In this document: piece after piece, positions 5,701-54,807 of the stretch
How positions within the stretch are numbered: position 1 is the first letter of the stretch
Layout: each line of letters begins with the position of its first letter
Source of the DNA: Anaerolineae bacterium
GTDB lineage: Bacteria > Chloroflexota > Anaerolineae > JAADDB01
Direction of reading: 5' to 3'
Assembly: GCA_015486845.1 (NCBI GenBank)
Contig: WFQU01000160.1
Span: forward strand, 3,313 to 67,312
DNA length: 64,000 bases
The notes under the pieces: generated by a model
What the model saw: only the letters and a program-made list of their open reading frames with translations
What the model was told of the DNA's origin: nothing
The model's database searches: none
Made by a program: the position numbers and the translations under genes

Positions 5701-5840
5701 ATTAAGGCTTTAGCCGGTGGTAGATCCACTAACCCGCCTAAAGGCTCGACGTCAGCCGCATCATTTTCATCCGTTGTGGTAGGCCTGTCTGCGTGCCCGC
5801 ACAGGCAGGCCACAGGCCCATCTGAAAATAAACTTCTCTG

Positions 5841-5953
5841 GAGGGTAGCCGAGGGCATTGCCCTCGGCTACCCTCTCCTCCGAAAAATAGAACGCCGACT
5901 AATCGCCCTACGGCGATTTGGCAGACGTTGCCGTGACTTTCAGTCGCTGGGCC
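5841..5953. repeat. 36-bp palindrome plus a partial family B module (B8, no core palindrome)
   Basis: A perfect palindrome gagggtagccgagggca/tgccctcggctaccctc lies at 5841-5876. The segment ccgactaatcgccctacggcgatttggcagacgttgccgtgact matches B-element arms at 12090, 34430 and 54700. Confidence 0.6.
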
Positions 5954-6084
5954 ATCTTTTTCTTTCGAGAGCACTGCCCTCGAGCTCCCCGCAGGGGAAC
6001 CGTATGGTTTCCTTCCAACCCTTCTGAAAAGCGTTCCCCCAGCTAAGGTGGTCAAACGAATTAAATAGGTCGTTGCTATTCATG

Positions 6085-7119
6085 TTAGATAACTTTGCCG
6101 CCGGAATTGCCGCGAGCGGGGTGGGGAAGGGCTTGCCGCCAGTGTACTGCCTGCCGGCGCCGGTTCCGCCAGCGCCAATAGCATCCGACAGGATAGCCGA
6201 TCATTTTCGCAATATCACCGCTCAGCCGGATTGCCGGTACCCAGCAGGCAGCGATCATCCGTTGAGTTTGGCTGTACGCTTGCCACAGGCGTTGTAAGCG
6301 CAACCACGGCCGGCGCAGGTAGAGCAATCCGCTTAGCAAGAGCAATAGCACTGTGAATTTAGTGCGGCTGGCGACCAGGGTTAGCGCTGGTAATACAATG
6401 AGGTATGTTAGATAACGCAGACCGTGGCGTGTGCGCCAAAGATCGGCTTTGCCGTCCCCGCGGGCGTAGCGGTAATATTGCTGGGCGAATTGTCGTAAGT
6501 TCTTCCGTGGACGGAAATGAACGACGGCGTTGGGTGCCCAGTGGATCTTGTCACATCTGGCCCGAAGCTGAAAATCGAAGAGCAGGTCTTCGCAATAGTC
6601 AAGCCAGGTTGGGTAACCGCCGCTGGCCTTCCAGGCTCTTCTCGTGAAAGCTACTGATCGGCTGGAGGGAAGAAATGTTGCCGGGTTGATCTCCTCTTTT
6701 AAGGGCAATGTGGTAGCGCCTAAAGCTAGTTCGAATACGTTGGCCGGGTCGGCCTGGAAGAAGCCAGCCACGGCTTCTATCTTCTCTTCTCGGCCTCGTA
6801 ATGGCTTGGTGATCTGTTCTAACCAGTCTGGCTCTAAGCGCACACCGGCATCTGTGACAGCTATGATCTGGCCTTTCGTCGCGTTGATGGCAGCGTTACG
6901 TCCGGTGCTGATATTGGCCTGAGGAATGACGAGCACCCGCACCGGCAAATGGTTACTAAAAGCATTGATGCGGTCTACCGTTCCATCGGTCGAACCGCCA
7001 TCGACAAAAAGAATTTCGTCCGGCTGTACAGTTTGAGCCACTAACGAATCCAGCAAAACATTAATGCTGTTGCTTTCGTTATAGACTGTGATGGCTATCG
7101 AAATAATTTCTGTTTTATC
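6085..7119 (-). CDS. family 2 glycosyltransferase (GT-A fold) with a C-terminal membrane segment
   Basis: ISIAITVYNESNSINVLLDSL...DEILFVDGGSTDGT. The preferred start is the TTG at comp(7117..7119), which has an AGGGAGG ribosome-binding site. The ORF track starts at 7158. Confidence 0.75.
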   Translation of the reverse strand, partial: DKTEIISIAITVYNESNSINVLLDSLVAQTVQPDEILFVDGGSTDGTVDRINAFSNHLPVRVLVIPQANISTGRNAAINATKGQIIAVTDAGVRLEPDWLEQITKPLRGREEKIEAVAGFFQADPANVFELALGATTLPLKEEINPATFLPSSRSVAFTRRAWKASGGYPTWLDYCEDLLFDFQLRARCDKIHWAPNAVVHFRPRKNLRQFAQQYYRYARGDGKADLWRTRHGLRYLTYLIVLPALTLVASRTKFTVLLLLLSGLLYLRRPWLRLQRLWQAYSQTQRMIAACWVPAIRLSGDIAKMIGYPVGCYWRWRNRRRQAVHWRQALPHPARGNSGGKVI

Positions 7120-7180
7120 AGTCAAAGTAATTGCCTCCCTGGGGCTTCGTATAGTCAATCACTATGTATTACGCGTTTTA

Positions 7181-7852
7181 CTATACGTAAGCGCATTTAC
7201 GAGTTATTATGGCAAGGCTGGTTAGGATTAATAACGCCAAGAGTAGCCACAACGGCCCCCACCCAATTCGAAAGCTGTGTGCGTACAGGTGTCGTAGCTC
7301 TGGAAGCAAACGTGCGAATTGCCAAAGCGCACCAATGGTTGCGATACCATTGACAATAGACAACGCTAACCAGGAGACGTATCGGTGCCAATAGGGTGTG
7401 GTGAACCAGATCAGCACGGATAATACCAGCCAGCCGGTAAATAATCTGTTAGCTGGTCGTAATAGTATTGCTGGAGTCCAGGTTGGGGGTAGTAACGGAT
7501 AGCTTTGGCTGCCGGCCAACAGCCAAAGCACTCCACGCCAGATACGCAGGTTGGTGCCGGGGAACGCTCGCCAGGCAATATATCCGATTGTCAAGGTGGT
7601 AGTGATGATCGGCGCAGCCAGCCAAAACCGCTGTAAAGCGTGTTGTCCGGCACGTGTGGCAGGCAGTAGTTCGATGAAGTTTGGCAACAGAAAAAGATTA
7701 AAGCGCAGGCTCATGGCGCCTTGATTGCTGGTTAGCCAGGCTGACCAGGCTGATAGCGCGTTACAGACAATCAAGCAGAGTAGGAGGATAGAGAGTAGAG
7801 GGTTTCCGTTTGAAGTAGTTCGTGTTTTTCGTGTAGTCATTATACTATCCAA
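7181..7852 (-). CDS. hypothetical polytopic membrane protein
   Basis: 223 aa with multiple hydrophobic helices. It sits between two glycosyltransferase genes. Confidence 0.5.
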   Translation of the reverse strand: MDSIMTTRKTRTTSNGNPLLSILLLCLIVCNALSAWSAWLTSNQGAMSLRFNLFLLPNFIELLPATRAGQHALQRFWLAAPIITTTLTIGYIAWRAFPGTNLRIWRGVLWLLAGSQSYPLLPPTWTPAILLRPANRLFTGWLVLSVLIWFTTPYWHRYVSWLALSIVNGIATIGALWQFARLLPELRHLYAHSFRIGWGPLWLLLALLILTSLAIITRKCAYV

Positions 7853-7879
7853 TCATCACACTCCACTAAATTCACCAAA

Positions 7880-9031
7880 TCACCCACCCAAGCCACCCAA
7901 GACCGACCAATAAACCATCAATAACGCACCTGCCGCAGCTTCCCAAGTAAAACGTTTCGCCCGGGTTAGTCCACGTCGGGCATATGCTGCTCTCGTTTCT
8001 TCACTTTCAGCCAAAGCCAGCAAAGCGGTCAACCAAGACTGTTCTTCCTCCAAAGGCAAAACATAGCCGGCGTCTCCGACTACTTCGGGCAGGGAAGCCC
8101 GATCACTGACCACAACAGGCGTACCGCACGCCATCGCTTCCAGTGGCGGTAGCCCAAAGCCTTCATAGTGTGATGGGTAAACTAAGGCGTCGGCGCAACT
8201 CAAGAGCGCCGGCAAATCCGCATCATCGACGAAGCCGACAAAATGGATACGCGCACGCGCCGGGCTGGCTGCCGCCGCGGCGAAGACAGGCTCGTAGTCC
8301 CATCCTTTTCCCCCGGCGATGACTAAATGCTGCCGCAGCCCGGGATGCGCCTCCACCAGCCGCGTGAAGATGCGAATGAGGCCGGTCAGGTTCTTGCGCG
8401 GTTCTATCTTCCCCACGAACAGGAAGAAACGTTCCGGCAGCGCGTATTTGTCGCGCACGCGGTCCAACGCTTCATTGTCGTTGATGGGCCGGAAGCGTCG
8501 GTCGACACCGCAATAAACCACGCTGACGCGCTCTTCCGGAATCCCCCAAATGCGCACGATGTCCCGGCGCGTCGATTCCGAATCGGCAATGAGATGATTT
8601 GCCCGGCGCGCGGAGCGGGGCACCGCTTTTGCCAGGAACTGTTGCAATTTGCGGTGGGCGAATTGCGGCATGACCAGGAACGAAAGATCGTGAATGGTTA
8701 GAATGGTGCGGCCCGAGAGGGTGGGGAGGAGCAAATAATCCGGGAAGTGCCACAAGTCCGCTTTGCCCACGAATGGCTCTATTGGCCACGGCACTCGCAC
8801 TCGCTGCCAGAAGATGATCCCCTGGCGCTCTGTCAACGGTAAATGGCGCACTGGGAAAGGCGTGCGCTTTCCGCCGATCACCGCGTTCTTGTTCGCGAAA
8901 AGCTCGACCCGTACGTCCGCCGGCAAAATAGATCTCAGCGCGGTGAACAACTCGCGCGTGCAGCGGCCAATGCCGGCCGACTGCGTCAACGCTGACGTGT
9001 AATCTGCTCGAATGGTGGTTGCCATACTCAT
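7880..9031 (-). CDS. family 4 glycosyltransferase (GT-B, GT4)
   Basis: A C-terminal EGFGLPPLEAMACGTPVVVSD motif. ATGA start/stop overlap with gtrA. Confidence 0.85.
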   Translation of the reverse strand: MSMATTIRADYTSALTQSAGIGRCTRELFTALRSILPADVRVELFANKNAVIGGKRTPFPVRHLPLTERQGIIFWQRVRVPWPIEPFVGKADLWHFPDYLLLPTLSGRTILTIHDLSFLVMPQFAHRKLQQFLAKAVPRSARRANHLIADSESTRRDIVRIWGIPEERVSVVYCGVDRRFRPINDNEALDRVRDKYALPERFFLFVGKIEPRKNLTGLIRIFTRLVEAHPGLRQHLVIAGGKGWDYEPVFAAAAASPARARIHFVGFVDDADLPALLSCADALVYPSHYEGFGLPPLEAMACGTPVVVSDRASLPEVVGDAGYVLPLEEEQSWLTALLALAESEETRAAYARRGLTRAKRFTWEAAAGALLMVYWSVLGGLGG

Positions 9032-9495
9032 AATCCCCGGTAGGTCCAGAGGCGATTAGCGCCAAAGTTCCAGAACATAGCCACAAAACTGGCAGTCACT
9101 TTAGCGAAGTTCAAGCTCCAGACTGTTGCAAAGTAATGCGAGTAAATGAAATGGTCACTGCCTAAGAACACAGTCTGGTTGATGGTCCAGCCGACGAAAT
9201 AGACCATCATGAACTGGGCTAATTGGCCGTGCACGGCCCTTTCCCTGGATTCCGGGAAAGTCCAGAGCCGGTTCCAGGTGAAATTGTTGAGCACGGACAG
9301 GGAAAACGAAGCCGTGTTAGCCCAGAATTTCGGCCAGCCCAACACGAAGAAAAAGAAATTCAACAAGCCGAAATCGACAGCCGCTCCGCTGAAGCCGATG
9401 GTGCCGAATTTCAAGAACCGCTTTATCTCTTTCCGATGTCCCGGCGGCACGACTTCACGGTAGTGTGCCAACAACGATCCTAATCCGGTGATCAC
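9028..9495 (-). CDS. GtrA-family membrane protein (polysaccharide synthesis/translocation)
   Basis: 155 aa, with FGTIGFSGAAVDFGLLNFFFFVLGW...NFTWNRLWTF typical of GtrA. GTGA overlap with the upstream ORF. Confidence 0.75.
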   Translation of the reverse strand: MITGLGSLLAHYREVVPPGHRKEIKRFLKFGTIGFSGAAVDFGLLNFFFFVLGWPKFWANTASFSLSVLNNFTWNRLWTFPESRERAVHGQLAQFMMVYFVGWTINQTVFLGSDHFIYSHYFATVWSLNFAKVTASFVAMFWNFGANRLWTYRGL

Positions 9496-11012
9496 TCTGT
9501 GATTTCCTCCTGATCAAGTTGTGATGGCAGGGATGATACCATAAAGGCGAGGATACCTAAAACAAGGCCCAGGAAAAGTTGCAAGCCGTGGACATACAGG
9601 TTGTCGAACAGGTTGTGAACGGACAGATGAACCAGGAAACCGAGTGCGCCTAAGGTGATTGCGCGATCGACGCCGTTCGTGCTGGCCAACAAACGCAGCG
9701 CGACAACTGTCGCCCAAACAAAGAGCAGCAGATACGCGCCAAAGCCGATGACGCCGCTCTCGGCCAAGAAATTCAGGTAGATATTGTGGGCATGGCCCAG
9801 CGCTTGTCGCCACAACGAAATCTGAAAAACGGGGTAGGCGACCGGGTAGTTACCGATGCCGACGCCGTGCCACGGGTGGGCCAGCCACATGTTCCAGGCT
9901 GAAAGCCAGTGCGCGGTGCGTTCCAGGATGGCGAAATTCGTGCCGCTGATGGGGGTTGCCCGGAATCGCACCGGATGCATAAAAAGTAACCAATCTTGAA
10001 ATGATCCTAAGCGAGCCAATAGCACAGCGGGGATCAAATGCAATTGCTCGATCCAGTTGAGCAGCAGAAGTAAGCTGCCACCGCCGAGGGCCAGCCAGAA
10101 CGTGGTCCGGCTGAAGAAGAGCAGCACGACCAGTGACGATGCCGCTGCGCCCATCCAGCCGCCTCGGGACCAGCTGGTTAACAGGCCGGCGGCAATGAGG
10201 GCCGTCAAGAGCCAAACGATCAGCCCCTGGCCCAGCGCGCTGAGCGGGCGCCGGGCATTCCTGTTGTGACGCCACGCCCGGCTAAAACGTACAGCCTCCC
10301 AAAGCGACAAGCTCACGCCGAACGGCAGCATCAACCCCAAATAGCCGCCGAAAGGGTTCGGTTGGGCAAAATCGCCGAAAGCGCGCTTGAAACGGCCGCC
10401 GAGAACTAAGAAAGCATCCGGGCCCAGGCGCAAGTAGAACTGCCGCAGGCCGACCAGCGCCTCTAAAGCGCCCGCCACGAGCATGGCTGCCACGAGCCAG
10501 GGCAGCCAACGCTCGGACAACAAATTCAGGGCGGCCAAGTAAATGGCTAACACTTCGCCCCATTTGAACCATTCCGGCAGCGCCTGGGCCGGGGAAAGCG
10601 CGTACCAGAACGAGACACCCACGGCCACAAACAGGAGCAGCAATGGCCAGAACAGGTCGCCCAGTCGCCAGGACAGCTTTCTCCTCCCCAAATCGCGCAG
10701 GAGCCAGAGAGCCAGCAGGAGCATGACCAGCAAGTCCGGCAAGTGGAACGGCAGCCCTCGCCAGGCCCAGAAGCCGAACGGGATGGCGAAAGGGAGCAAG
10801 AAAAGGCCGTAAACCGGGTTGACGAGCAGGAGGAAGAGAATTACTCCGCCGGCCAGCACAATAGCTGCCAGCGGCCAGGGCAAAAGAACGACAATGAGCC
10901 ATGCGAACAGCGTGAGCAACACAGGTGCGATGAGAGTGCTGCGCGGGGTGGGGGATGTCAGCCTGATTTGCAACATTTGCCTGAAATTTGCGCTCCGATT
11001 CGATTTAGCCAT
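9492..11012 (-). CDS. O-antigen ligase-like (Wzy_C) polytopic membrane protein
   Basis: HNIYLNFLAESGVIGFGAYLLLFV matches the Wzy_C motif. There are more than 10 transmembrane helices. The start was chosen at MAKSNRS (comp 11010..11012). The ORF track extends to 11129. Confidence 0.65.
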   Translation of the reverse strand: MAKSNRSANFRQMLQIRLTSPTPRSTLIAPVLLTLFAWLIVVLLPWPLAAIVLAGGVILFLLLVNPVYGLFLLPFAIPFGFWAWRGLPFHLPDLLVMLLLALWLLRDLGRRKLSWRLGDLFWPLLLLFVAVGVSFWYALSPAQALPEWFKWGEVLAIYLAALNLLSERWLPWLVAAMLVAGALEALVGLRQFYLRLGPDAFLVLGGRFKRAFGDFAQPNPFGGYLGLMLPFGVSLSLWEAVRFSRAWRHNRNARRPLSALGQGLIVWLLTALIAAGLLTSWSRGGWMGAAASSLVVLLFFSRTTFWLALGGGSLLLLLNWIEQLHLIPAVLLARLGSFQDWLLFMHPVRFRATPISGTNFAILERTAHWLSAWNMWLAHPWHGVGIGNYPVAYPVFQISLWRQALGHAHNIYLNFLAESGVIGFGAYLLLFVWATVVALRLLASTNGVDRAITLGALGFLVHLSVHNLFDNLYVHGLQLFLGLVLGILAFMVSSLPSQLDQEEITE

Positions 11013-11125
11013 GATGCATGCCTGTGTTGCATTGTACATGGCTGGCGTGCATTGTGCAAGAGGAATCTGGCAGCTCCGATCAATAGTACAACTCAATAGT
11101 ACAACTGCCGTGACAAATAGTATAC

Positions 11126-11446
11126 TCACCGTTGTCGATTAAAAATGCTCTGGCAGGAGAAACAACCACCCAACCAAACCCAACAACGAGCAATAATACT
11201 AAACCGGGAAACAAAAATCGGCGCATACTCTTTGAGTATGGCAAACGGGTAGGGACGTGTCAAGTTGAATGGTAACTCTACCCAGCTTTCTTTGGCCAAA
11301 GCGGGCACTTGCTCGGCCAATTTCGATCCCGGCGCAATGGTCAGCATCTCCCGTTTCAAGCCAACGATGCGGGGGATGCTGATCCCCACACTGGTTTCTT
11401 TGTTGTGATAAACAAACTCACCTTGAGGATTTTGTTGCACTTTCAC
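11126..11446 (-). CDS. hypothetical protein
   Basis: 106-aa ORF with a GTG start and an AGAGGTGA ribosome-binding site. No recognised domain. Confidence 0.35.
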   Translation of the reverse strand: MKVQQNPQGEFVYHNKETSVGISIPRIVGLKREMLTIAPGSKLAEQVPALAKESWVELPFNLTRPYPFAILKEYAPIFVSRFSIIARCWVWLGGCFSCQSIFNRQR

Positions 11447-11527
11447 CTCTGGCGTCGGTGTGGGTGGCAGCTGAGCAGCTGAATAGTATCATAGTTGTTT
11501 GGAATGCGTCAAGTGGTAGGGCGCGAG

Positions 11528-11558
11528 ACGTTCAACTTCTCTCAGAAGTTGAACGTCT
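11528..11558. repeat. family A hairpin-only copy (A5): gacgttcaacttct-ctcag-agaagttgaacgtc
   Basis: A 13-bp perfect inverted repeat related to the AGAAGTTCAACTTCT hairpin of family A. Confidence 0.6.
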
Positions 11559-12065
11559 TCAGCTGTGCGGGCTCAACCGCAATTGTGGCCGGCGGTAAGA
11601 TATTGGCTCGGGGCGACTGAAGTCACGCCGGGGGGGGCAGTTCGCTGCGCTCACCGCCGGGCGACCACCTGTCAGGGACGATTTTTGCCCTCGTTTATTA
11701 CTTTACACTAGGGTAGTTATGTAAAGTAACGGAAGAAAAGCAAGGAGTCTGTCCGGCTCCAATGGTTGGCAGCGCATATAAAGGCGATTCTGCCCTCTTT
11801 ATGCCTCGGTTCGCTGCAATGCTGTTTCATGATCAGGTGTGTGCTGTTCCACCACACGCAATCGATGATCTATTGTGGCGCAGACCGATCACGATCCGCC
11901 GCGATGGGTTATGCCGGGCAACATGGGCGTTGTCACCTGGCCTTCCCTCGTTTCGCGCTTAACGTGCGGACTAAGGCGGTAAATTGTCATACTTTTCTTC
12001 CCGGTTGTTTCTTTCCCAAATCCCCCCACCCTGCTAAAATAAGGGAAGGGTCGGTGTTTTATGCC

Positions 12066-12178
12066 TGGCGACTGGAAGTCGCGGGCTACATTTGCGAAAT
12101 CGCCCTACGGCGATTAAATAGATAACCTGCGCAGGCGGGTTTCGCAATCGTAGGTGCGGTTTTAATAGCCGGTCAAAC
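12066..12178 (+). repeat. intergenic repeat, family B copy B1 (core palindrome AACCTGC-GCAG-GCGGGTT)
   Basis: The motif ttgcgaaatcgccctacggcgatta ... aacctgcgcaggcgggtt ... gcggttttaatagccggtcaaa is shared with copies at 12281, 14098(rc), 17764(rc), 20581(rc), 34345(rc) and 54695. Confidence 0.8.
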
Positions 12179-12180
12179 TA

Positions 12181-12276
12181 AGCGGACGTGGATGACGCAG
12201 GTTTCACACTGATGCACGTAGATAAAACAGAAAAAGATCAGCGTAAATCAGCGTGCATCAGCAATATCAGCGTTCA
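12181..12276 (+). repeat. module C copy C2 (GGACGTGGATGACGCAGGTTTCA followed by tandem ATCAGCGT-like octamers)
   Basis: Similar to 3505-3582 and partly to 52540-52600. Confidence 0.55.
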
Positions 12277-12280
12277 ATTG

Positions 12281-12384
12281 AAGGTCACGGGCAACATCTG
12301 CGAAATCGTCCTGCGGCGATTAGCATGCAACCTGCACAGGCAGGTTTCACAATCATAGCAGCGATTTTAATCGCCGGTCAAAAC
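12281..12384 (+). repeat. family B copy B2 (core aacctgcacaggcaggtt at 12329-12346)
   Basis: A tandem second copy 100 bp after B1. It ends 10 nt before the smpB ATG. Confidence 0.8.
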
Positions 12385-12394
12385 AGGCAGGTTA

Positions 12395-12871
12395 ATGGGA
12401 AAATTAGATCAGGAAGAGAGCTTCCGGGTGGTGGCCAGAAACCGGAAAGCTTATCACGATTATCATATCGAGGAAACGGTCGAGGCAGGCATTGCGCTCA
12501 CTGGCACGGAGATCAAGTCGGTGCGCGCCGGCCAGGTCAATCTGCGCGATAGTTACGCTGAGATTCGCAATGGCGAGATCTGGCTGGTGGACGCTCACAT
12601 CTCGCCGTATCGCCACGGCAACCGGCAAAACCACGAGCCCCGCCGCCCGCGCAAACTGCTTCTACATCGGCGAGAGATCAACCGGCTGATGGGCAAAGTG
12701 CAGGAAAAAGGGTGGACGCTTGTCCCGCTGCGGATGTATTTGGCGCACAACAAAGCCAAAGTGGAACTGGCACTGGCCCACGGCAAGCGGCTTTACGACA
12801 AGCGCGCGGCCATCGCCAAGCGAGAATCGAACCGAGAGATGCGCCGGGCGCTGAAGAATAGCCGCTATTGA
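12395..12871 (+). CDS. smpB: SsrA-binding protein SmpB
   Basis: VVARNRKAYHDYHIEETVEAGIALTGTEIKSVR...LLLHRREINRL. Confidence 0.85.
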   Translation: MGKLDQEESFRVVARNRKAYHDYHIEETVEAGIALTGTEIKSVRAGQVNLRDSYAEIRNGEIWLVDAHISPYRHGNRQNHEPRRPRKLLLHRREINRLMGKVQEKGWTLVPLRMYLAHNKAKVELALAHGKRLYDKRAAIAKRESNREMRRALKNSRY

Positions 12872-14073
12872 GGCGCGATGAACCACGCGTCGACAATGCT
12901 GCCGGCGGGTAATGGCTGCTCTGCATCGGGCGGCACCCGCAGCACGGCGTTGGCGCCTACTAAGGAAAGGAGCCGGGCCGAGCCTTGGTAGCCAGTCGTA
13001 TTGGCGATGTATCCCCCACCCTGCCAGCGTAGCTTCGCTCGCACGAATTCGATACGGTCCGGTGCGTGTTTCAACGGCGCTGCAATTGTCGCCTGGACGA
13101 CTTGACGCTGGAACGTGTAGCCTTGCAATTTGAGCAGGAACGGCCGCACGTAGAGCTCGAAAGAGACCAGCGCCGAGACCGGGTTGCCCGGCAGGGTGAA
13201 AATCGCTGTGTCTTCGACTGTGGAAAATGTCATCGGCTTGCCCGGCTTCTGGAAGACACGACCAAAGTGTATCGTGCCATGTGCCGCCAACCAGTCTTTC
13301 AACAAATCACGTTTGCCTAAAGAAGCGCCACCGCTGGTAATCACCACGTTAGCCTGTTTGACAGCCTGTGTTAGACGGGCATCCAATACCTTTTCGCGAT
13401 CAGGGACAATGCCTATATCTACGACAGTCGCGCCGGCCTGGACTGTCGCAGTCTGCAACGCGTACCGATTGGCATCCCAGAGCTGTCCCGGCGCCAATGG
13501 CTCACCGAGCTCCCGCACTTCATCCCCGGTAGAAAGGAGCGCCACCCGGGGGGCGCCGTACACCGTCACTTGCTGCTGGTCCAGCATGGCCAGCAAGCCG
13601 ATCTCCGCCGGGCCTAAACGGCTCCCAGCGGGCAGAACCAACGACCCGGCGGCGATGTCCACACCCGAGGGACGCACGTTTTCCCCCACCGCGACCGCTT
13701 TCTGCAGGGTGATGGAATCCTCTTTCTCGACCACATCTTCCCACATGACCACGGCATCGGCACCGGCCGGCAGATGGGCGCCGGTAGTGATGCGTGCCGC
13801 TTCGCCGGGGTGCACCTGCAGCTTGGCATCGTAATGGCCGGCCAACTGTTCACCGACCAGTTGACGCCGGGGCGAATCATCAGCGGCAATCACGGCAAAC
13901 CCGTCCACCGTGGTGGTAGGCAGTGCCGGGTAATCGAACGGCGCGTAGAGATCCGCGGCCAACACTTTGCCGGTCACGGCAGTCAATGGCAAAGTCAAAG
14001 ATCGTAGAGGTTGTGCCTGATCAAGGACAATCTCTAAAGCTTCTTCTGGCATAATGGTTGGATATACTTTCAT
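12865..14073 (-). CDS. moeA: molybdopterin molybdenumtransferase MoeA
   Basis: MoeA N-terminal, MoCF-binding and C-terminal domains (GDEV...GGVSVG-like ITSGGASLGKRD). The true start is MKVYPTIMPEE at comp(14071..14073). The ORF track over-extends through a repeat to 14271. Confidence 0.8.
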   Translation of the reverse strand: MKVYPTIMPEEALEIVLDQAQPLRSLTLPLTAVTGKVLAADLYAPFDYPALPTTTVDGFAVIAADDSPRRQLVGEQLAGHYDAKLQVHPGEAARITTGAHLPAGADAVVMWEDVVEKEDSITLQKAVAVGENVRPSGVDIAAGSLVLPAGSRLGPAEIGLLAMLDQQQVTVYGAPRVALLSTGDEVRELGEPLAPGQLWDANRYALQTATVQAGATVVDIGIVPDREKVLDARLTQAVKQANVVITSGGASLGKRDLLKDWLAAHGTIHFGRVFQKPGKPMTFSTVEDTAIFTLPGNPVSALVSFELYVRPFLLKLQGYTFQRQVVQATIAAPLKHAPDRIEFVRAKLRWQGGGYIANTTGYQGSARLLSLVGANAVLRVPPDAEQPLPAGSIVDAWFIAPQ

Positions 14074-14097
14074 TTTTGTCCCTCGTTTATGAATTAT

Positions 14098-14211
14098 TTG
14101 ACCGGCGATTAAAATCGCTGCTACGATTGCAAAACCTGCCTGCGCAGGTTGCATGCTAATCGCCGCAGGACGATTTCGCAAATGTTGCCCGCGACTTCTA
14201 GTCGCCGGGCC
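14098..14211 (-). repeat. family B copy B3 (reverse orientation; core aacctgcctgcgcaggtt at 14133-14150)
   Basis: The reverse complement of B1/B2. It lies about 25 bp upstream of the moeA start. Confidence 0.8.
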
Positions 14212-14308
14212 TAAAAAAGCGGGCGGATCATAATCCATCCCTATGCACCAACAACCATCCATGCGGCACAACGCTTGAGCCCCCTTTTAGGGGGCTTCCC
14301 AAATTGTA

Positions 14309-14331
14309 GCTCGAGGCTTTGAGCCTCGAGC
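14309..14331 (-). terminator. GC-rich hairpin(s) immediately after the lepB stop (candidate terminator)
   Basis: gctcgaggc-ttt-gagcctcgagc abuts the stop codon, with a second hairpin gcccccttttagggggc at 14279-14295. The U-tract is weak. Confidence 0.35.
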
Positions 14332-14332
14332 C

Positions 14333-14962
14333 CTATTTTTGCGTGTATTTCCAGTGGTGGATGATGCCCATGCGGGACGGCGGCCAATAGGTCAGGAAAG
14401 CCCTCCCGATAATGTATTTCTCGTCCAGTGGCCCCCAGCTGCGCGAGTCGTTGGAGTGATTGCGGTTGTCACCCATGACGAAAAGCTGCCCGGCGCGCAC
14501 TTTGACCGGCCCCATATCGCGGTTCATGGGGCCGTTGATGTACGGCTCGACCAGCGGTTTGCCGTTGATGAGCACATGGCCGTCGCGCACGCTGATGGTA
14601 TCGCCGGGCAGCCCGATGACCCGCTTGACGAAACGCACTTTCGGGTCCAGCGGGTAATCGAAAATAATGATATCGCCCCGCTGCGGAGGATGAAGTCGAT
14701 AGGAAACCCGATCTACGAACACAAGCTGCCCGTTGTGCAACGTCGGGTACATACTGCTGCCTTCGATGCGATAGTTAACGGCGACTTGACGAATAGCCAC
14801 GAAGATAATAAGCGTGATGATAACAGTTTGCAGAAATTCCCAGAAGATGGAGGCCAATGTGCTCTGCTGGCGTGGTGGTTGCTCTGCCATGGTCGTATCG
14901 TTTGTTTCATTCTCGTCATCTGTGAATGGGGAGGATTGTTCCTGTTCTATGAAATCATTCAT
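14333..14962 (-). CDS. lepB: signal peptidase I
   Basis: GSSMYPTL (Ser box) ... KRVIGLPGD (Lys box) ... GDNRNHSNDSR. Confidence 0.85.
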   Translation of the reverse strand: MNDFIEQEQSSPFTDDENETNDTTMAEQPPRQQSTLASIFWEFLQTVIITLIIFVAIRQVAVNYRIEGSSMYPTLHNGQLVFVDRVSYRLHPPQRGDIIIFDYPLDPKVRFVKRVIGLPGDTISVRDGHVLINGKPLVEPYINGPMNRDMGPVKVRAGQLFVMGDNRNHSNDSRSWGPLDEKYIIGRAFLTYWPPSRMGIIHHWKYTQK

Positions 14963-15201
14963 GCTGAAAACACGCTCCGGGTGTTGAATTGTCCGTCGCC
15001 ACGGCCGGTTGCTGCACCGCGTGACGGTCTGTCAAGATGGCGTTATCATAGCACTGAGCCGGGAATGTGGCAAAAAGATTACGCTGTGGGTTGTTTGTGG
15101 CGGAAAACATAAAGGAAAAGCCGATGCCCACAACGAAAAGTCCTCAGGTCGCCGGCCAGGTTGTCGGCAGCGTTCTCGATGTTCTTTCCCGTCTGTAAGG
15201 C

Positions 15202-15744
15202 GTGAAAAACGCTGCGGAGTTGGTCAAATATTTCAAAGAGCATCAAGAGGCCCGCGCAGCGCTGGCGCACGCGGTAGCCGAGGCCGAAAACGCGTTCATC
15301 GCCGCGGCCGCCCGGCAAGGGTTACACGATGTTGCCGACGCGGTGCAGCAGTTGCCGCTGGCCGACACGAAAACTTTCCGACAGGCGCTGGCGCTGATGC
15401 TGGTTACTAGGGATAACGAAGCGATGCAACAAGCGCTCGCGAAGCTGCTGGGCGACGTCAAAAGCCTGCCGGAGCGGGAACGGGCGCGAGGGGCGGCGCT
15501 TTATTTGGCAGAGCTGCGCGCTGCGCTTTGGGCGGAACCCCACTTCCACGACGTGGCGGACGCGCTGTTGCAACTGGATCAGTCCCGACGGTTGCAGCAA
15601 GTCCAAGACGCGATTGCCGCCATTGGATGGCGATTGCCGCACATACACGAACGTTGTAATCGCTGTCGGCCAATGGTTACCGGCTACCGGCTATCTCAGC
15701 GTATACCCGGCTGGACAACGCCTGGAAGGTCCGGCCCACGGTGA
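15202..15744 (+). CDS. hypothetical Ala/Leu-rich protein
   Basis: 180-aa ORF with high GC3 bias. It has a convergent 68-bp overlap with the GT4 gene. No recognised domain. Confidence 0.35.
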   Translation: MKNAAELVKYFKEHQEARAALAHAVAEAENAFIAAAARQGLHDVADAVQQLPLADTKTFRQALALMLVTRDNEAMQQALAKLLGDVKSLPERERARGAALYLAELRAALWAEPHFHDVADALLQLDQSRRLQQVQDAIAAIGWRLPHIHERCNRCRPMVTGYRLSQRIPGWTTPGRSGPR

Positions 15745-16858
15745 AATGGCGGGCAACCCGCTGCTGCCCGGCCAGCCCCATGGTTCGCCGCCGTGCCGGG
15801 TCGTTCCAAAGGGCAACCAGCGCTGCCGCCACGCCGTCCAGGTCGCCCGGCGGCAGCAAAAGCCCGGTTTCCCCGTCCATCACAATCTCCGGCAGCGCGC
15901 CGTGGGCGAAAGCCATCAACGGCAGGCCGGCGGCCATCGCTTCGATATTGACCAGCCCGAACGGCTCCGGATCGCCCACATGGACGAAAAGATCCATGGC
16001 AGCCAACGCTGGCCGCACGTCCTCCAACTGGCCGGTGAAAATGACTTTGTCGATCAGCGACGGCTCTTCCGCCAGCGCGTGCAGCGCTGCCACATAATCG
16101 TCGTCCGCTTGCAGCGGGGCGCCGCCCACAATTAAAAACCGCGCCGTCGGGAGGCTGGCGGCAACGCGGGCCGCCGCTTGCAGGAAACGTTTTTGTCCTT
16201 TCCACGGCCGCAGCCGGCCCACAGTGCCGATGACCGGCACGCCGGCGGGGATAGCATGCGCCCGGCGGAACTTCTCTCCGTCCGGCAGCGTGGCCAGCCA
16301 GTTTTCCGGCAGGCCGTTGTAAACCACCGCGGTTTTCGCACCGCAGGGCAGATGAGCCGCCACGGCGCGGGAATTGGCTACCACAGCCGCGGCGCGACGG
16401 CAAAGCCACCGTTTCAGCATGGCATCCATCCAGGGCCAGCGCGGCTTGCTTTCGCTCAGCCAGAAATCGCGCATGTGCCAGATCCAGCGCATCGCGCCGC
16501 TGCTCGCCACCGCGCCGTAAAACGCGGTGCGGACCGTGTTGCTGTGCAGGAAGTCGGCGTGGATAGACCGCGCCAACACGTCGAGGGCGTTCCCTTGTCG
16601 GCGCAGGGTAAGCCAGAAGTCGGCCGAGCGGCGCAACGGCGGAAAGGCAAACCGGTGCCAGGTCACGCCGATTTGCGTTGCTCGGTCCGCCAGCGGCCCG
16701 GCCGGCGTGGCCAAATGGATGTCATGGCCCGCCGCAACCAGCGCCTCCATCAGCCAAAGCAAGCTGTACTCGGCGCCGCCCATGCCCGGGGCGTGGTCGG
16801 CGAATAGGATCGTCCAGCGTCGTTCCGGCGGCACGGCACGGCTCTCCGCCGTGGTCAT
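15677..16858 (-). CDS. family 4 glycosyltransferase (GT4)
   Basis: [20 protein letters not shown]...GETGLL motif. Confidence 0.85.
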
Positions 16859-17667
16859 TGGCCGCTGTCGGCGCCGATGATCTTCAGCCCGGCGCTGGCA
16901 CCTAAGCGGGACGCGCCGGCTTGCACCATCGCCTTTGCTTTGGCGAAATCACGGATGCCACCGGCCGCTTTGACGCCCATATCGTAGCCGACCACAGCGC
17001 GCATCAGCGCGACATCTTCCACCGTGGCGCCGCCGGGGCCGAAACCGGTGGAGGTCTTGACGAACTCGGCGCACGCCGCGTCGGCCAAAACGCACGCCGC
17101 GATCTTCTCTTCGTCGGTCAGCAGCGCCGCTTCGATGATCACTTTGACGTGCGCCCCTTTTTCGTGTGCCGCGACGACCACTGCCCGGATGTCCTCGAAC
17201 ACGGCAGCGTACTGGGCTGCTTTGAGCCGGCCGACGTTGATCACCATGTCCACTTCATCAGCACCGGCGGCCACGGCCGCCTCGGTTTCCACTGCTTTGA
17301 CGCCGGTGAGGGTGGCGCCCAACGGGAAACCGACTACCGCGGCGATGGAGACATCGGTCCCTTGCAATAATTCGGTTGCATAAGGCACCCAGTACGGGTT
17401 GACGCAGACCGCCGCGAAATGGTGGTCCGCGGCTTCCCGGCAAAGGGCCGCGATGCTGCTTTCCGTGGCGTCCGGTTTCAGCAGCGTGTGGTCGATCAAT
17501 GGGGCCAAATCAGCCGGGGACGTGATGCTTAGTCCCCTATCTTGCAACTGCCGGCTGGTCGGGTCTTCTGCCCGTTGGCATTCCTCCGGGACGGTATGTT
17601 GGATTGTGGCGAGAACTTTTTGCCGCATTGCTTTGATTTGGGCGAGGCTGGTTTTTGTTTTTAGCAT
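16855..17667 (-). CDS. deoC: deoxyribose-phosphate aldolase
   Basis: [10 protein letters not shown]...VCVNP...KVIIEAALL...VKTSTGF...GVKAAGGIR. The start is taken at MLKTKT, which has an AAAGGAAAA ribosome-binding site. 4-bp overlap with the GT4 gene. Confidence 0.8.
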
Positions 17668-17763
17668 GGTTTTTCCTTTTTGAGTGGATAGCCTTATGAC
17701 TACACGAAATATAAAATTAAACATTGATAATGATAATGCTAATTTGCACCGATTTTTTCCTGT

Positions 17764-17818
17764 TTGACCGGCGATTAAAATCGCTGCTACGATTGCGAAA
17801 CTTGCCTGCGCAGGTTAT
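17764..17818 (-). repeat. family B partial copy B4
   Basis: tgaccggcgattaaaatcgctgctacgattgcgaaacttgcctgcgcaggtt. About 95 bp upstream of the deoC start. Confidence 0.7.
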
Positions 17819-19362
17819 CTTTCAAGCATCACGCCCAAACGCCCAATTAGCTCGTCGGCCGGCACATCAAAACGCTCGCCGCCCCGGCTATGCACCTCCA
17901 CCAAATCGGTTTCCCCCCATTTTCGGCCGGCCACAACCTGCCACGGCACGCCCAGCAAGTCAGCATCGTTGAATTTGACGCCGGCCCGTGCCGGTCGATC
18001 ATCGTAAAGGACAGCCAGCCCGGCATTGGAGAGCACTTCCGCCAAGTTGTCCGTCCGACGGGTCAAATCGGCGTCTTTGCCGGCCAGTGCCAGCAAATAC
18101 ACGTCGTACGGTGCCACCGCCGGCGGCCAGCGCAACCCGTCCTCGCCATGATGGCAGGCCACCACGGCCGTTGCCAGCGCGGCCAACGAAAGCAATCCGG
18201 TCCGCTGCACTGCCGCTTCCGGCCGGCCGGCCCGGTTCAGATACGAAGGCCCGGCAAACCGCGCCCATGCCCCCACCCGGTAGCCGCGAACGATTACGAG
18301 GCGACCTTCCTCGCAGGCTGGGCAGCGATCTCCCGGCCCAGCCTGTCTCAAATTGGCTACCAGATCGGCGCTGTAGTCGCGGTCGAAATTGCTGTTCAGG
18401 ATGTGATACCCTTCTTTATTGGCTCCGGCGACGAGGTTGGGTGATTTTGCCACGAGATAGTCAATGACTACACGAAAGGCGCCGGGCTCCAGGCCGAGGG
18501 GCGACGCATAGCCGGGGACGGTGCCACCGGCGCGGATTTCTTCCTCTGTGGCCTGCCGGAACGAATCCGCGCCGGTGGCACGCTTCAGCTTGACCTCGTT
18601 CAACTTCGTATCGCCCCGCACAACAACCAAATAGCGTTGGCCGTCACCCACCAGGAAGAGCGCTTTGGCGGTACGGCTGGCCGGAATACCCAAGAAATCC
18701 GCCAGCTCGACGATGGTGCCGCAGTGCGGCGTCTCGATCTCCTCGGCCGGCAACATCGTTTCCTCGGACAACGGCGGATTGCCGCTCAGCGCGGCCGCTT
18801 CGCTGGCCGCGTAATCGCACCGGTCGCAAGCCAGCCACCGCGCCGGCCCATTCTCGGCGGGAACGACCAGCGCGACGGCGTCATCCCCTGCCGGCTGCAG
18901 ATCCGGCAGCAAAAGAAGCGGTACATCCAACGCAGCGGCGATCTCCTCCACCGCTTTCGCCCGTCTGCCCACAACATCCTCTCCGGCATTGCCATCGCGC
19001 CAGGAGGAAAATTGCCGCCACGATTGCGCTCCCCGGCCCCACCGCTGCGTGATAGCCAGCGGCAACTGCTTATACGAAAGGAGAAGCGGCTCGGCTAACG
19101 TCCCCGTCTGCGCCGCCAAAGCGGCCAACGAAACGTCCTCTACGGGCCAGGCAACCTCATCAGCGCCTGGCGACAGCGCCGAGCGCACGATTTCGTCAAT
19201 CCGGTCATACAAGCGGACGCCCAAAGGGGAAAGTGCAGCCGAGGATTCAGCGCCGGCCCAGTAGCCGGCCCGCCAGAGCCATTTCTCGGCCACGGTTGCC
19301 CCCGCCGCCGGCATTTCCCTCCAGGTACGATGGAAAAGGCCTTGCATCCGTGTGATCATCAC
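17815..19362 (-). CDS. prolyl-tRNA synthetase paralogue: INS (editing-like) and anticodon-binding domains are conserved, class II catalytic motifs are degenerate
   Basis: The N-terminus ([19 protein letters not shown]), SYKQLP, the INS segment ([17 protein letters not shown]) and the C-terminal anticodon-binding domain ([28 protein letters not shown]) match bacterial ProRS. The motif-2 FRDE..RxREF and motif-3 GxGxGxxR positions are replaced ([13 protein letters not shown]; [12 protein letters not shown]). The segment containing GPTHEE is deleted. Confidence 0.7.
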
Positions 19363-20327
19363 CCCACCAGTTTTCTCTGTGTGTCGCCATCAAAACCCAC
19401 CGCATCCGAAACGATATACAACGGCCGGCCTTTGACTTCATCATAAATGCGCCCCAAATACTCGCCGATCACGCCCAGGAAAATGAGCTGCACACCGCCC
19501 AAGAAAAGCACCATGACCAACGTCGTCGCCTGGCCGTAGAGCGCCTGGTGGCCGTAAAGACGCAGGAAAATGACCAGCAAAATGCCAAACAGGCTCAGCC
19601 CGGCGGTGATGAAACCCAAATAGGTGGCCAATTGCAGCGGGAAATAGGAAAACGAGGTGATGCCGTCCAGCGCTAAGCGCAGCATTTTGCGGAACGGGTA
19701 GTGCGTCGCCCCGGCAAACCGTTCCTCTCGCACGTATTCCACGCCGGTTTGCTTGAAGCCGACCCAACTGGAAAGCCCTCGCATAAAGCGATGTTTTTCC
19801 CGCATGGTGCGCATAGTCTCCACCACTTTGCGATCCATGAGGCGGAAATCGCCGGCGTCCACCGGCATGTCCACATCGGTAATGCGATAAATGATGCGGT
19901 AAAACAAACTGGCCGTGAAGGACTTGAAGAAGGACTCCCCTTTCCGCTTGGCTCGCACCGCGTAAACGACTTCGTAACCCTCTTTCCACTTGGCGATCAA
20001 ATCGAGAATCACTTCCGGCGGATCCTGCAAATCGGCGTCAATGATCACCACCGCATCGCCGCTGGCGTAATCCATGCCGGCAGAAATGGCCACCTGGTGG
20101 CCGAAATTGCGCGAGAAATTCACCAGTTTATAACGAGGATCCTTACGGTGTAAATCTCGCATGATCTCCGGCGAGCGGTCTTTACTGCCATCATTAACCA
20201 ACACGACCTCATACGGTTCATCTAACTTATCCATTGCACCGGTCAAACGACGATACAATTCCGGCAAGACGCCCTCTTCATTGTAAACCGGCACAATAAT
20301 AGAATATCGCGGTTTCTCTATGACCAA
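19359..20327 (-). CDS. polyprenol-phosphate glycosyltransferase (GT2; GtrB/ArnC/DPM1-like)
   Basis: [11 protein letters not shown]...[10 protein letters not shown]...DADLQDPPE plus two C-terminal transmembrane helices. The TTG start has a GAGGAGG ribosome-binding site. ATGA-type 4-bp overlap with the ProRS-like gene. Confidence 0.85.
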
Positions 20328-20348
20328 AAATACCCTCCTCTAAAACTT

Positions 20349-20575
20349 AAATGGGACGCAGATCAACGCAGGCTGCGCACACAGATAAAAAATCAGGCCC
20401 TCTTTAAAGAAGTTCAACTTCTCGAAGAAGTTGAACTTCTAATAAGCCCCTTAGAAAGGGGCTGGTGTTAAGCAGCCTCTTGACAGAGGACCCTACCTTG
20501 ACGTACCCCGCCGCGGAAGCAAGGGGCCGGCGCACCGGAATGGGACGCAGGTCAACGCAGGCTGCACACGCCCGA
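20349..20575 (+). repeat. family A copy A2 (hairpin 20408-20440)
   Basis: About 90% identical to A1 over shared modules. It lacks one 57-bp internal module. The terminal module abuts the GtrB-like gene start. Confidence 0.8.
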
Positions 20576-20580: not shown

Positions 20581-20640
20581 AGAAGTCGCTGCTACAACTG
20601 CGAAACCTGCCTGCGCAGGTTGCACGCTAATCGCCGAGCG
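20581..20640 (-). repeat. family B partial copy B5 (adjacent to A2)
   Basis: gctgctacaactgcgaaacctgcctgcgcaggttgcacgctaatcgcc. Confidence 0.7.
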
Positions 20641-20805
20641 TTCCCCCGGCTAAGCTGATCAATTGATTATAATCCCACTCGGCACAAAATGAAAGACAAA
20701 ATGAAAGCCTTTTGGCCCAGCAACAACTATTCTAAATCCGACACGGCTCGCAGAAACATCTCTGAGAATAAGCAAAATTAACCGATTAATACAACTATGC
20801 AAAAC

Positions 20806-28541: not shown

Positions 28542-30794
28542 TCACGGAGCAGCGGGCGGCCAGAGTGTGTATTTCCGCAGCGCCGGCGGATCGGACTCGG
28601 CAACCCAGAGGGTTCCCCCCTCCGCCGCCATCAATCCAGGTTGGACGGCACCCTCTCCGTCCAGCGGCAACTTGCCCAACCAACGCAGGTCGCGCCCGTA
28701 GAAAAAGTCAATTCCCTTGCCGGAAGCACTCAGGACAGCCACATTTCCGGTTGCCGCCGCAAAGATTATCGCATCGGGGCGGGCAGGTAACGCTGCTTCT
28801 GATAGCAACGCACCGTCTCGCAGACGATAAGCGCGCAACCGGCGAGCCGCCCGGTCAACGACGTACACCACGCCGGCGGAACGATCCAAAGCCAGCAGTG
28901 CGGGGGCGCCCTGTACCCGCAACGTCGCCGTGATTACACCGTTGACAACGTGCAGCAAACGTCCTCCGGCAGTGTCAGCCCCCCAGACGCCCGCACCTCC
29001 AGCATCGGAGCACAAAGAGAGCAAGGAAGTCGACAAAATCCGGGTGTAGTCGATCCGACCGTCACGGTCGTAATGATACAGCGACGGCGGCCACCAACTA
29101 CCGGCATACCAACCATCCTGGACAGCCGCCGCGGCCAGCGGCATTCCCGGCAAGGGATCAGCTCTCCGCCAGGAAAAAGTATTCTCCTGGCGAGACAACA
29201 AGCGCGTCCGGCCGCCGTCGGCGGCTAAAAGTAAAGCCCGATCCCCCGCGCCGGCCAACATGCCGCTCACGCCGGGATCACCTTGCCAGATTTGTGCCAA
29301 ATCAGCGCCGCTGAACGCATGCAGTTTGCCGGTACCATCGTTCAGCAACAGCACATTAGTCAATAACGACAGGGCCACCGGCTGCGCCGACAAGGCGACA
29401 CTTTTCGCCAAAACCGGCCTGGCCCAAACCGCGGTAGGCGATGCCGTCGGAGTAATCGTTGACGTCGGCGTCGGCGTGGCAGTCGGTGGCGACGTGTAAC
29501 GGTGCCAGAGCAACGGCAGCCATTGCCACGAAGCGCCGGTGCGCAAAATGCGGTAACTGTGACAGTACGTTGGGCGGTTCAATGGCCGTATCTGGATGTA
29601 ATAGCGGCGTTCCGGCTGCCCTTGCCAGCGCAACAGCAAAGGGGTCTGGCCGCTAACGCCGGCTAACGGGCACATATTCATTCCCTGGTAAAGAGAAACG
29701 GAGGCTAAAAGGCCGGGCCCCAAGCCGGATATAGTCAACTGACACGATGAAGGGAAATGACTATCGAAATAAAGCCAATCCTGATCGGTCAAAGAGGAAA
29801 ACGTGTGTTGCTGGGAAACACCTTCGTCCAAAGGATGTGCCAACGTTCTGCGATCGTCCGGCTCAAAATAATCACTGGGACAAGTTGGCGTCACCGTCGG
29901 CGTAAAAGTTGGCGAGGCCGTTGGAGTAGCCGTCGGTGTTGGCGTAGATGTTGTCGTCGGCGTCCAGGTTGGCGTCGCTGTGGCCGTGGCTGTGGGTGTC
30001 AATGTTGGCGTCGGCGTGGGCGTGCAGGTAGGTGTGCTTGTCGCCGTCGCCGTGGGCGTAGCAGTCGGCGTGGGCGTGGGTGGACATTCCGAAGAAGGCA
30101 GTTGCGCTGCCAATGTTTCGACTTGTCGTGACGTCAAAGCACCGCCGTAAAGATGAATTTCATCTAACTCGCCGGCGTACGCAAATTGATACCAACGCCC
30201 CATGACCACGTTTCCATGACCGACCAAACCGGCAGCCTCTTTTTGGCCCACCAAAGCGCCGTTCAAATAAAGCTGCAACGACGTGCCGTCATAAACGGTT
30301 GCCACGTGTTGCCAGGTATCTATTACAGCCGGTAGCGTGCTCGTCACGGTTTGCCAGCCATTCTGCCACCCTTCCCAGACAAGTTTCTGAGTCGTCGGTT
30401 CCATATAAAGCCAAAACGTATCGTCATGCCAAAGTGTGGCATAATCCGAAGCCCGCCTGGAATCTATCCAAAAAGATAGTGCGAAAGCAGAACGGCTGTG
30501 CCAACCGGCCATAGGCAATGTCAAAGCGCTACTCCGGCCATCAAAAGCAATGCCCCAACAACGGTACCCGGGCCGAAAAGTCAACGCATTGCCGGAGGCA
30601 TCTCGCCCGGCAGGGCTACTATCGGCTAACGTGGCAAAAGAAAAGTTCCATTCGCCCTGCAACAGCGGCCAAGGCGCCGGCGTGGGCGTAGGCGTACGCG
30701 GCGCTTCCGGGGCAGGCACAGATATCACCGATAGTGCGACGCTCGGCATCACGACAAAGCTCATCAGAAGAAACCGCCAGAAAGAAGCTAACAA
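28542..30794 (-). CDS. secreted multidomain protein: LamG/concanavalin-like domain, Thr-Pro linker, pre-peptidase C-terminal-like domain, Thr-Pro linker, C-terminal beta-propeller-like region
   Basis: An N-terminal signal peptide. LamG-like segment LTLPMAGW...SFWI...LYLNGALVG. Long (TP)n linkers. The C-terminal 300 aa are repetitive and beta-rich. Confidence 0.6.
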
Positions 30795-34344: not shown

Positions 34345-34468
34345 TGGAAAACGTCCGATGATTCTCAACCGCTGCAACAGCTACGAAACCTGCCTGTGCA
34401 GGTTGAACGCCCATCGCCACGGAATAACATGGCAGACGTTGCCATGACTTATAGCCGCTGGGCCGCGT
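34345..34468 (-). repeat. family B copy B6 (core aacctgcctgtgcaggtt at 34387-34404)
   Basis: Lies in the ftsA-ftsZ intergenic region. Shares the arms ggcagacgttgccatgactt and agccgctgggcc with B8 and B7. Confidence 0.75.
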
Positions 34469-54795: not shown

Positions 54796-54807
54796 AGGCA
54801 GATCTCA

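Follow-up and report, generated by a model that had tools for sequence, protein, structure and literature searches.

A composite hairpin repeat, probably of the BIME/REP kind, beside the ribosome-binding sites of four genes in an Anaerolineae bacterium

The 64,000-nucleotide stretch of Anaerolineae bacterium DNA analysed here, referred to as the window (contig WFQU01000160.1 of assembly GCA_015486845.1, positions 3,313 to 67,312), carries a mosaic repeat, family A, in front of several of its genes. The question raised by this locus is why one repeated sequence ends at the Shine-Dalgarno (SD) sequence of gene after gene, and whether it supplies these genes with a promoter or with a common regulatory signal, the two readings offered by the initial annotation. 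The genes flanking the copies encode a major facilitator superfamily (MFS) transporter, a family-2 glycosyltransferase (GT2; 19359-20327, minus strand), a homocysteine S-methyltransferase (HcyMT) and a 125-amino acid (aa) protein (55335-55712), for which no Pfam match was found. Neither reading is supported for family A. On balance it is probably a composite non-coding interspersed repeat of the kind known as bacterial interspersed mosaic elements (BIMEs) and repetitive extragenic palindromes (REPs), lying in transcribed leaders and spacers beside SD sequences.

Repeat finding and alignment recovered four mosaic copies of 210-260 nt (c1 to c4), one solo terminal module (c5) and one solo hairpin (Table 1), which bears out the existence of the repeat as it was first described. 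All family A statistics refer to these five copies from a single 64-kb window. The hairpin pattern had five matches in the window and the 31-nt module A had four, each against 0.00 expected (from shuffles for the hairpin). The core hairpin is AGAAGTTCAACTTCT-N3-AGAAGTTGAACTTCT. Its 15-bp stem is perfect in c1-c3, as claimed in the initial annotation, but c4 and the solo hairpin carry compensated variants; the loop is of 3 nt, and the pattern with the loop of 5 nt given originally had no match in the window. Read in the sense of the downstream gene, the modules follow each other in the order CCGGAAT end, two to three GC-rich hairpins of which one is GTAG-led, core hairpin, conserved linker (TTAAAGRGGGCCTGATTTTTTA), module A or its diverged form, and terminal TTATTTTCA(G/A)AGGAG. 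The GTAG-led hairpin, 58 nt long (GTAGCACGGGG...CCCCGTGC) and separate from the core hairpin, is present in c1, c3 and c4 and absent from c2. The terminal module of c3 and c4 is a diverged one (gctgcgtcaact(g)attttcagag) of the same length as module A. The module beginning with cgtcccattt, at first placed before all four genes, was found before the MFS, GT2 and 125-aa genes but not before HcyMT, which has the diverged module. In c2, module A occurs at both ends and forms a 31-nt direct repeat, the only flanking direct repeat in family A.

Among approximately 58 gene starts in the window, the T-rich-CA-GGAG context was found only at the MFS, GT2, HcyMT and 125-aa genes, so it belongs to the repeat and is not the usual ribosome-binding-site context of the genome. 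The conserved part stops at the SD sequence, 8 nt (MFS), 5 nt (GT2, which starts with TTG at 20327), 13 nt (HcyMT) or 6 nt (125-aa gene) before the start codon, and not 10-20 nt before it as first reported; the SD-to-start spacers that follow are unrelated among the four genes. The statement that the same end always faces a gene held for the orientation, which is constant, with the repeat stopping at the SD, but not for c4, which abuts no gene: it is 285 nt away from the 125-aa gene on the upstream side, c5 lying between the two. The T-rich motif has ten intergenic copies, and every one was directed toward the downstream gene. The orientation of copies tracks local transcription and not the GC-skew domain; a replication-strand bias was rejected because c2 and c3-c5 share a GC-skew domain yet have opposite orientation. 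Whole copies were highly structured when folded (z = -3.0 to -4.8 relative to shuffles) and their last 80 nt were unstructured (z = +0.5 to +1.2). Folding energies of sense and antisense strands were equal, with no consistent difference, which fits DNA palindromes rather than an evolved strand-specific RNA. A terminator reading was discarded, since no T-run adjoins the core hairpin or module A and module A is unstructured.

Comparison of orthologous intergenic regions agreed with the description of family A as a portable 5' region. The repeat was absent at the orthologs of all four genes in sister lineages, with proteins 80-94% identical. In strain L125, whose GT2 is 98% identical, one module A with the U-rich SD end lies upstream of GT2, and exactly 189 nt of c2, comprising the core and one module A, are missing; this difference could have arisen by insertion beside a resident module A or by deletion between two direct copies. 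The GT2 and MFS genes of one sister lineage (94% and 84% identical, respectively) are divergent neighbours, separated by a compact, repeat-free gap of 200 nt with sigma-70-like boxes. In the window they are 15 kb apart on the same strand, each with a family A copy, and no remnants of the ancestral GT2-MFS intergenic region were found there. The homology of MFS with its sister ortholog starts exactly at the SD, and GT2 has retained its SD and the 5-nt spacing. A promoter of HcyMT, CTTG(C/T)CA-N17-CTACAAT, is common to three lineages in which the leader is about 45, 181 and 614 nt long; homology between the window and the sister lineage reaches up to the last -10 base and is back 5 nt inside the gene. 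As this conserved promoter lies approximately 390 nt upstream of c3, c3 is in the transcribed leader. The gap between the 79-aa and the 125-aa gene, only 23 nt in the relative L140, where the preceding gene is of 83 aa, is 697 nt in the window and holds family B (a second mosaic repeat), c4, another repeat, a further U-rich motif and c5. A sister lineage has module A 16 nt upstream of the dapF SD and a hairpin 250 nt further up; family A modules other than the hairpin and module A were found only in contigs of the same strain or species. Family A had no match in plasmid and phage collections, and neither had the hairpin and module A in viral contigs. Family A lies downstream of a promoter or of a preceding cistron and upstream of the SD, and is modular, lineage-restricted and of fast turnover. 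In assemblies of the same strain, contigs break off 43-155 nt upstream of these four genes, a pattern that multicopy DNA would give. The samples REYS20 and SONG20 contain no fewer than two strains of the species.

Table 1. Coordinates of family A copies, their modules and associated features (positions in the window unless a contig is named; -, minus strand; +, plus strand;., no strand assigned).
Feature	Position	Strand	Description
Copy c1	5454-5706	-	Abuts MFS transporter gene (4216-5445, -); SD AGGAGG 5454-5459; hairpin 5528-5560
Copy c2 (copy flagged in the initial annotation)	20334-20575	-	Abuts GT2 gene
c2, gene-proximal end	20328-20349	-	T-rich stretch and SD GGAGGG (20333-20338), 5 nt from GT2 TTG
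c2, module A, proximal	20350-20380	-	AATGGGACGCAGATCAACGCAGGCTGCGCAC on + strand; unstructured as RNA
c2, linker	20381-20407	-	TTAAAGAGGGCCTGATTTTTTATCTGT in sense; kept in 4/4 full copies
c2, core hairpin	20408-20440	.	Perfect 15-bp arms, 3-nt loop; REP-type module common to many Anaerolineales-type metagenome contigs
c2, distal hairpin modules	20441-20538	-	GCCCCTT-AGAA-AGGGGC; CCTCT-TGAC-AGAGG; ...CCTTGACGTACCCCGC...CCGGAAT end
c2, module A, distal	20539-20569	-	Direct repeat of proximal module A
Copy c3	52598-52822	+	In 5' untranslated region (UTR) of HcyMT gene (52823-53722); hairpin 52709-52741; diverged terminal module; T-rich-GAGGAG 52795-52809
Copy c4	54804-55050	+	Not gene-adjacent; hairpin variant 54950-54982, compensated G-C to A-T; ends in ATTTTCAGAGAAG
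Copy c5	55266-55334	+	Solo module A and T-rich-GAGGAG; 6 nt before ATG of 125-aa membrane protein gene (55335-55712)
Solo hairpin	11526-11558	.	Compensated A-T to C-G variant; 79 nt from GTG start of 11126-11446(-)
Extra T-rich terminal motif (TTATTTTCAGATGGG)	5817-5831	-	Co-oriented with MFS
Other extra T-rich motif copies	5875-5889(-), 20757-20771(-), 52438-52452(+), 55200-55214(+)
Native HcyMT promoter	52180-52208	+	TTGCCA-17-TACAAT; conserved in two sister lineages
Family B unit	20586-20636	.	Second mosaic repeat, adjoins c2; also flanks c4 (54686-54773), near c1 (5899-5948)
Family B sites	5899-5948, 12057-12178, 12288-12382, 14097-14216, 17762-17820, 20586-20636, 34370-34410, 54686-54773
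Hairpins around the 188-aa gene, contig WBZL01000115 (L027)	12587-12620; 13213-13246; 13273-13306

The core hairpin reaches beyond family A. With a loop of 3-5 nt it was present at no fewer than 120 metagenome loci, with at least 172 copies in 919 kb and in at least 20 assemblies of 46-67% GC. About 87% of the copies lay outside open reading frames (ORFs) of at least 100 aa, gene calls in these loci being longest-ORF heuristics. A scan of genome contigs with the N5-loop pattern returned one locus, from an Anaerolineales metagenome-assembled genome (MAG). Names of homologous proteins, together with locus L001, assign the window to Anaerolineae/Chloroflexi. The flanks of the metagenome hairpins are unrelated to family A, and part of the copies consist of the hairpin alone; about 45% of copies have AAAT at one flank and TGCG, GGAA or TGCC at the opposite one. 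At some loci (L007, L039) hairpins are arrayed in tandem, the 16-nt spacers between them being identical. The split of gene contexts into tandem, convergent and divergent (77/29/24) was equal to that of the background of intergenic gaps (294/102/98), and the distribution of hairpin-to-start distances in the metagenome loci was flat, with no preferred distance. A peak 20-30 nt after stop codons is largely due to TTAGG/CCTAA element ends, which supply the stop; in WBZL01 contigs such TTAGG...CCTAA elements surround the hairpin and have a look similar to MITEs (transposable elements of miniature size with inverted repeats) or REPINs. In these loci from another Anaerolineales genome (L019-L062 and others; e.g., L008 2030-2120, L014 7000-7095), the hairpin forms the tip of palindromic elements of approximately 100 nt, and the upstream ORF often takes its stop codon from the terminal TAA or TAG of the element. 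In a set of 30 variant hairpins, roughly half the changes were compensated on the opposite arm. Such arm-to-arm compensation, near-impossible by independent mutation, points to a folded single strand or to self-correction of a palindrome, and argues against a pair of half-sites, each bound by protein on its own.

A gene in contig WBZL01000115 (L027; 12630-13196), coding for a 188-aa protein (MCA9996714.1), has the hairpin on both sides, at 10 nt upstream and at 17 nt downstream. The protein is annotated as a transposase of an Anaerolineales MAG and matched the Pfam family Y1_Tnp (PF01797) with 38.5 bits, the cut-off being 23; a sequence search of the PDB with it gave no match. A single-copy Y1 transposase flanked by a dispersed palindrome is the hallmark of systems of REPs and REP-associated tyrosine transposases (RAYTs); RAYT genes are flanked by REPs or other inverted repeats, and REP families occur in Chloroflexi (PMC3733652). 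The core hairpin looks like a REP-type element and not like a member of a described REP family. A full-text literature search with the hairpin sequence returned nothing relevant, a search on REPs in Anaerolineae likewise gave nothing, and no description of the hairpin or of the family A composite was found in the literature. Clustering of 552 ORFs near hairpins gave only generic families. A second, distantly related Y1-transposase-like gene, for a 214-aa protein with HVH and Y...NP motifs (L009 3088-3732), is 1.9 kb away from a hairpin copy and not bracketed by it.

The core hairpin resembles REPs, REPINs and their RAYTs in being a short palindrome (33-35 nt, with the 15-bp stem and 3-5-nt loop), extragenic and of high copy number, in keeping its stem complementarity, and, in L027, in bracketing a single-copy Y1 (HUH) transposase gene. 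It differs in that its stem is perfect, AT-rich and 15 bp long and is common to many assemblies over 46-67% GC, whereas classical REPs are clade-specific; inverted doublets, as in REPINs, are not formed in the window. Like BIMEs of Escherichia coli and NIMEs of Neisseria, family A combines a palindromic unit with other short motifs, its modules come and go, and it occupies transcribed untranslated DNA including operon spacers (PMC3049150). Its organisation is of BIME type, with no sequence relation to E. coli BIMEs; unlike these it has one core palindrome per element instead of alternating palindromic units, and it is situated at 5' ends abutting the SD, not mainly at 3' ends, with a terminal module which is U-rich and SD-like. 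Pneumococcal BOX elements are similarly modular (A-B-C-like), highly base-paired, frequent in 5'UTRs and co-transcribed, and can lengthen leaders to near a kilobase (PMC3049150). They are, however, unrelated in sequence and have no known SD-bearing end, fixed ribosome-binding-site junction or RAYT link. Correia elements (CREE) of Neisseria are small non-coding repeats near gene starts which change how adjacent genes are expressed and whose RNA hairpins undergo processing (PMC3049150); family A is also small, non-coding and close to gene starts, but lacks their 26-bp terminal inverted repeats, TA duplication and outward promoters. Terminal inverted repeats with a target-site duplication, as in MITEs, were not found, the ends CCGGAAT... 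and ...TTTTCAGAGGAG being unrelated. What sets family A apart is an untagged perfect 15-bp stem across assemblies, a single core palindrome, and a U-rich, SD-like end fused to the ribosome-binding sites of unrelated genes.

Taken as a composite interspersed repeat of BIME/REP type, family A may be given the following history. A RAYT-like Y1 transposase probably acts on the 33-nt core hairpin, a REP-type palindrome widespread in Anaerolineales, in its single-stranded DNA form, and an enzyme of this type would presumably mobilise it in the present genome as well. In a narrow lineage further hairpin modules, one of them GTAG-led, and an unstructured U-rich module ending in GGAG would have been added to the hairpin. 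Insertion and recombination would have carried copies into 5' leaders and operon spacers, or exchanged them there, each ending at or beside the downstream SD. An element of this kind would bring no promoter of its own and would be co-transcribed from the upstream native promoter or from the preceding cistron, presumably also in front of GT2 and MFS. Only the orientation which puts the U-rich GGAG end, and not the GC-rich hairpins, on the ribosome-binding site would survive or be produced, and this end would keep or substitute an accessible translation-initiation region. As RNA, the upstream stack of hairpins could act in the manner of REPs and BIMEs as an exonuclease barrier, a stabiliser or an attenuator, and may in this way affect expression.

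Several points weigh against this reading. The statistics on orientation and position are small and partly non-independent. The RAYT link comes from one locus in another genome, where the score of the 188-aa protein with the NCBIfam model REP_Tyr_transpos (NF047646), 77.6 bits, is just under the cut-off of 80, and no RAYT gene was found within the window. The GTAG or CGTC tag of REPs was not found at the ends of the core hairpin, which is why we label it REP-type and do not assign it to a described family. The ancestral promoter region of GT2 and MFS is gone, and for these two genes a non-canonical promoter may lie inside the element. Finally, selection alone does not readily explain an exact SD junction in every gene-adjacent copy. 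The last point, and with it the orientation and the stacking of copies, would be accounted for by integration anchored at the SD, in which a REP/RAYT-derived element integrates at the SD core and acts as a mobile ribosome-binding-site or leader cassette. The route could be single-stranded DNA transposition beside a CTCC/GGAG tetranucleotide, comparable to the fixed 4-5-nt target of IS200/IS605-type elements, or recombination via the element's own terminal GGAG; mechanism, not selection, would then fix position and orientation, and the native leader would be replaced. The junction is indeed at the SD in the gene-adjacent copies despite unrelated SD-to-start spacers, CTCC flanks six of the ten T-rich motif copies on the template strand, same-orientation motif copies are stacked upstream of one gene as if by repeated hits at one site, native leaders look replaced and not merely interrupted, and module A in the sister lineage lies close to the dapF SD. 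Miniature elements derived from IS200/IS605 offer a precedent, being hairpin-dependent, without terminal inverted repeats and in fixed orientation to a short flanking target, and by analogy such a target would explain the junction at the SD edge, were it CTCC/GGAG. Nevertheless, displaced older copies keep SD-like flanks, although a strict target model gives no reason to expect them, the GAGGAG of the element at HcyMT and the ATG are 13 nt apart and may have a native AAAGAG between them, the core hairpin stands back from the gene-proximal end by approximately 60 nt, more than the subterminal hairpins of IS200/IS605 do, and the sample is of five copies only. We consider SD-anchored integration rather unlikely. 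If true, such a cassette would bring in a ready-made U-rich SD region for translation initiation, would remodel 5'UTRs and operon spacers and could disconnect genes from their ancestral promoters.

The constant orientation with transcription would also be expected of a structured leader RNA, in which read-through or translation is controlled by a closing stem with U6 behind it (GGGCCUGAUUUUUU) or by a CCUCUG inside the element acting as anti-SD. RNAalifold predicted a conserved long-range stem ending just before the U6, and a pairing of CCUCUG with CAGAGG at the SD. The long-range pairs show almost no covariation among the four sequences, though, sense and antisense do not differ in folding energy, the four downstream genes are functionally unrelated, their orthologs manage without the element, and no Rfam match was obtained even at permissive thresholds. 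In the window as a whole, Rfam covariance models gave nothing at the gathering threshold, and permissive matches to CRISPR-DR28, PyrR, miRNA and Whalefall-1 were at chance level. Control by the leader RNA is improbable on these grounds. Still less credit can be given to a mobile promoter cassette, in which an outward promoter would drive the adjacent gene as in some Correia elements. With the ancestral 200-nt promoter region gone, the promoter of GT2 and MFS must be new, but a sigma-70-like -35/-10 pair was not found in any copy, the promoter of HcyMT is conserved upstream of the element, c4 and c5 lie within an operon spacer, MFS can be reached by read-through from a co-directional upstream cluster, and a candidate promoter of GT2 lies upstream of the element (20843 to 20815). 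The remaining proposal, that the palindrome is an operator bound by a transcription factor which co-regulates MFS, GT2, HcyMT and the 125-aa gene, is about the least plausible. Each 15-mer arm is in itself a 7-1-7 palindrome, and four start codons in the window have the hairpin at a distance of 79-82 nt. Against this, orthologs of all four genes are without the hairpin element, and the hairpin occurs in at least 170 unrelated intergenic places, with no preferred start distance and no promoter-side bias in the 120 or more other loci. It also forms tandem arrays with identical spacers, flanks a RAYT-like gene, and has its changes compensated between arms and not within each arm. Both readings of the initial annotation, promoter cassette and shared regulon region, are very unlikely.

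Additional observations were made on family A and its surroundings. The solo hairpin is 79 nt from a GTG start, compared with 80-82 nt in c1-c3, and the intervening DNA is unrelated and holds TTGACG-18-TACTAT. When 4216-20327 was compared with L137-L139, L126 and L127, GT2-ProRS and MFS were divergent neighbours in the sister lineage, and a block of approximately 15 kb, from GT2 to a second GT2 gene, appeared inverted in the window, with family A copies at both gene starts. Family B, a mosaic hairpin repeat (GCGAAACCTGCCTGCGCAGGTT..., GGCGATTAAAATCGC...), is often next to family A; its only likeness in databases is a sub-threshold match to Rfam CRISPR-DR28, and there is no array. Two short GC-rich repeats lie at 52330-52440 (GGGGAGACCTCTCCCC...CCCCTCCCCGTGTCGGGGAGGGGG, with a sub-threshold Whalefall-1 match) and at 55050-55170 (GTCATTGCGAGG...TCGCAATC, partly common to L137 7579-7614). 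Tandem 10-nt repeats of ATCAGCGTNN (3-4 units) with an iteron-like look occur in two intergenic regions, at 52561-52589 and 12236-12275. Directly upstream of mraZ (51271-51696, minus strand), 3.4 units of CCCACTTTAT with a 10-nt period (51742-51775) give GTGGG direct repeats on the gene strand; locus L143 of the sister lineage has kept them (about 440-490), and they look like the MraZ operator of the dcw cluster. In a 750-aa ORF (28542-30794, minus strand), periodic repeats of 6, 12, 18 and 36 nt (29443-30085) encode a repetitive, probably low-complexity protein segment. The cumulative GC skew peaks at about 14000-16000 and then falls steadily, which could be a replication-related switch or a rearrangement boundary. 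No tRNA or tmRNA was found in the window.

The core hairpin is an apparently undescribed REP-type element, common to many uncultured Anaerolineales, linked at one locus to a RAYT-like transposase and without an Rfam family. A practical effect of such repeats is that they break metagenome assemblies exactly at gene starts. The loci compared here document fast remodelling of non-coding DNA, with a leader going from about 45 to 614 nt, a spacer from 23 to 697 nt and a divergent promoter region replaced, while the proteins are still 80-94% identical. Were the fixed SD junction the outcome of mechanism and not of survivorship, family A would be a case of selfish DNA rewiring translation signals by a new route.

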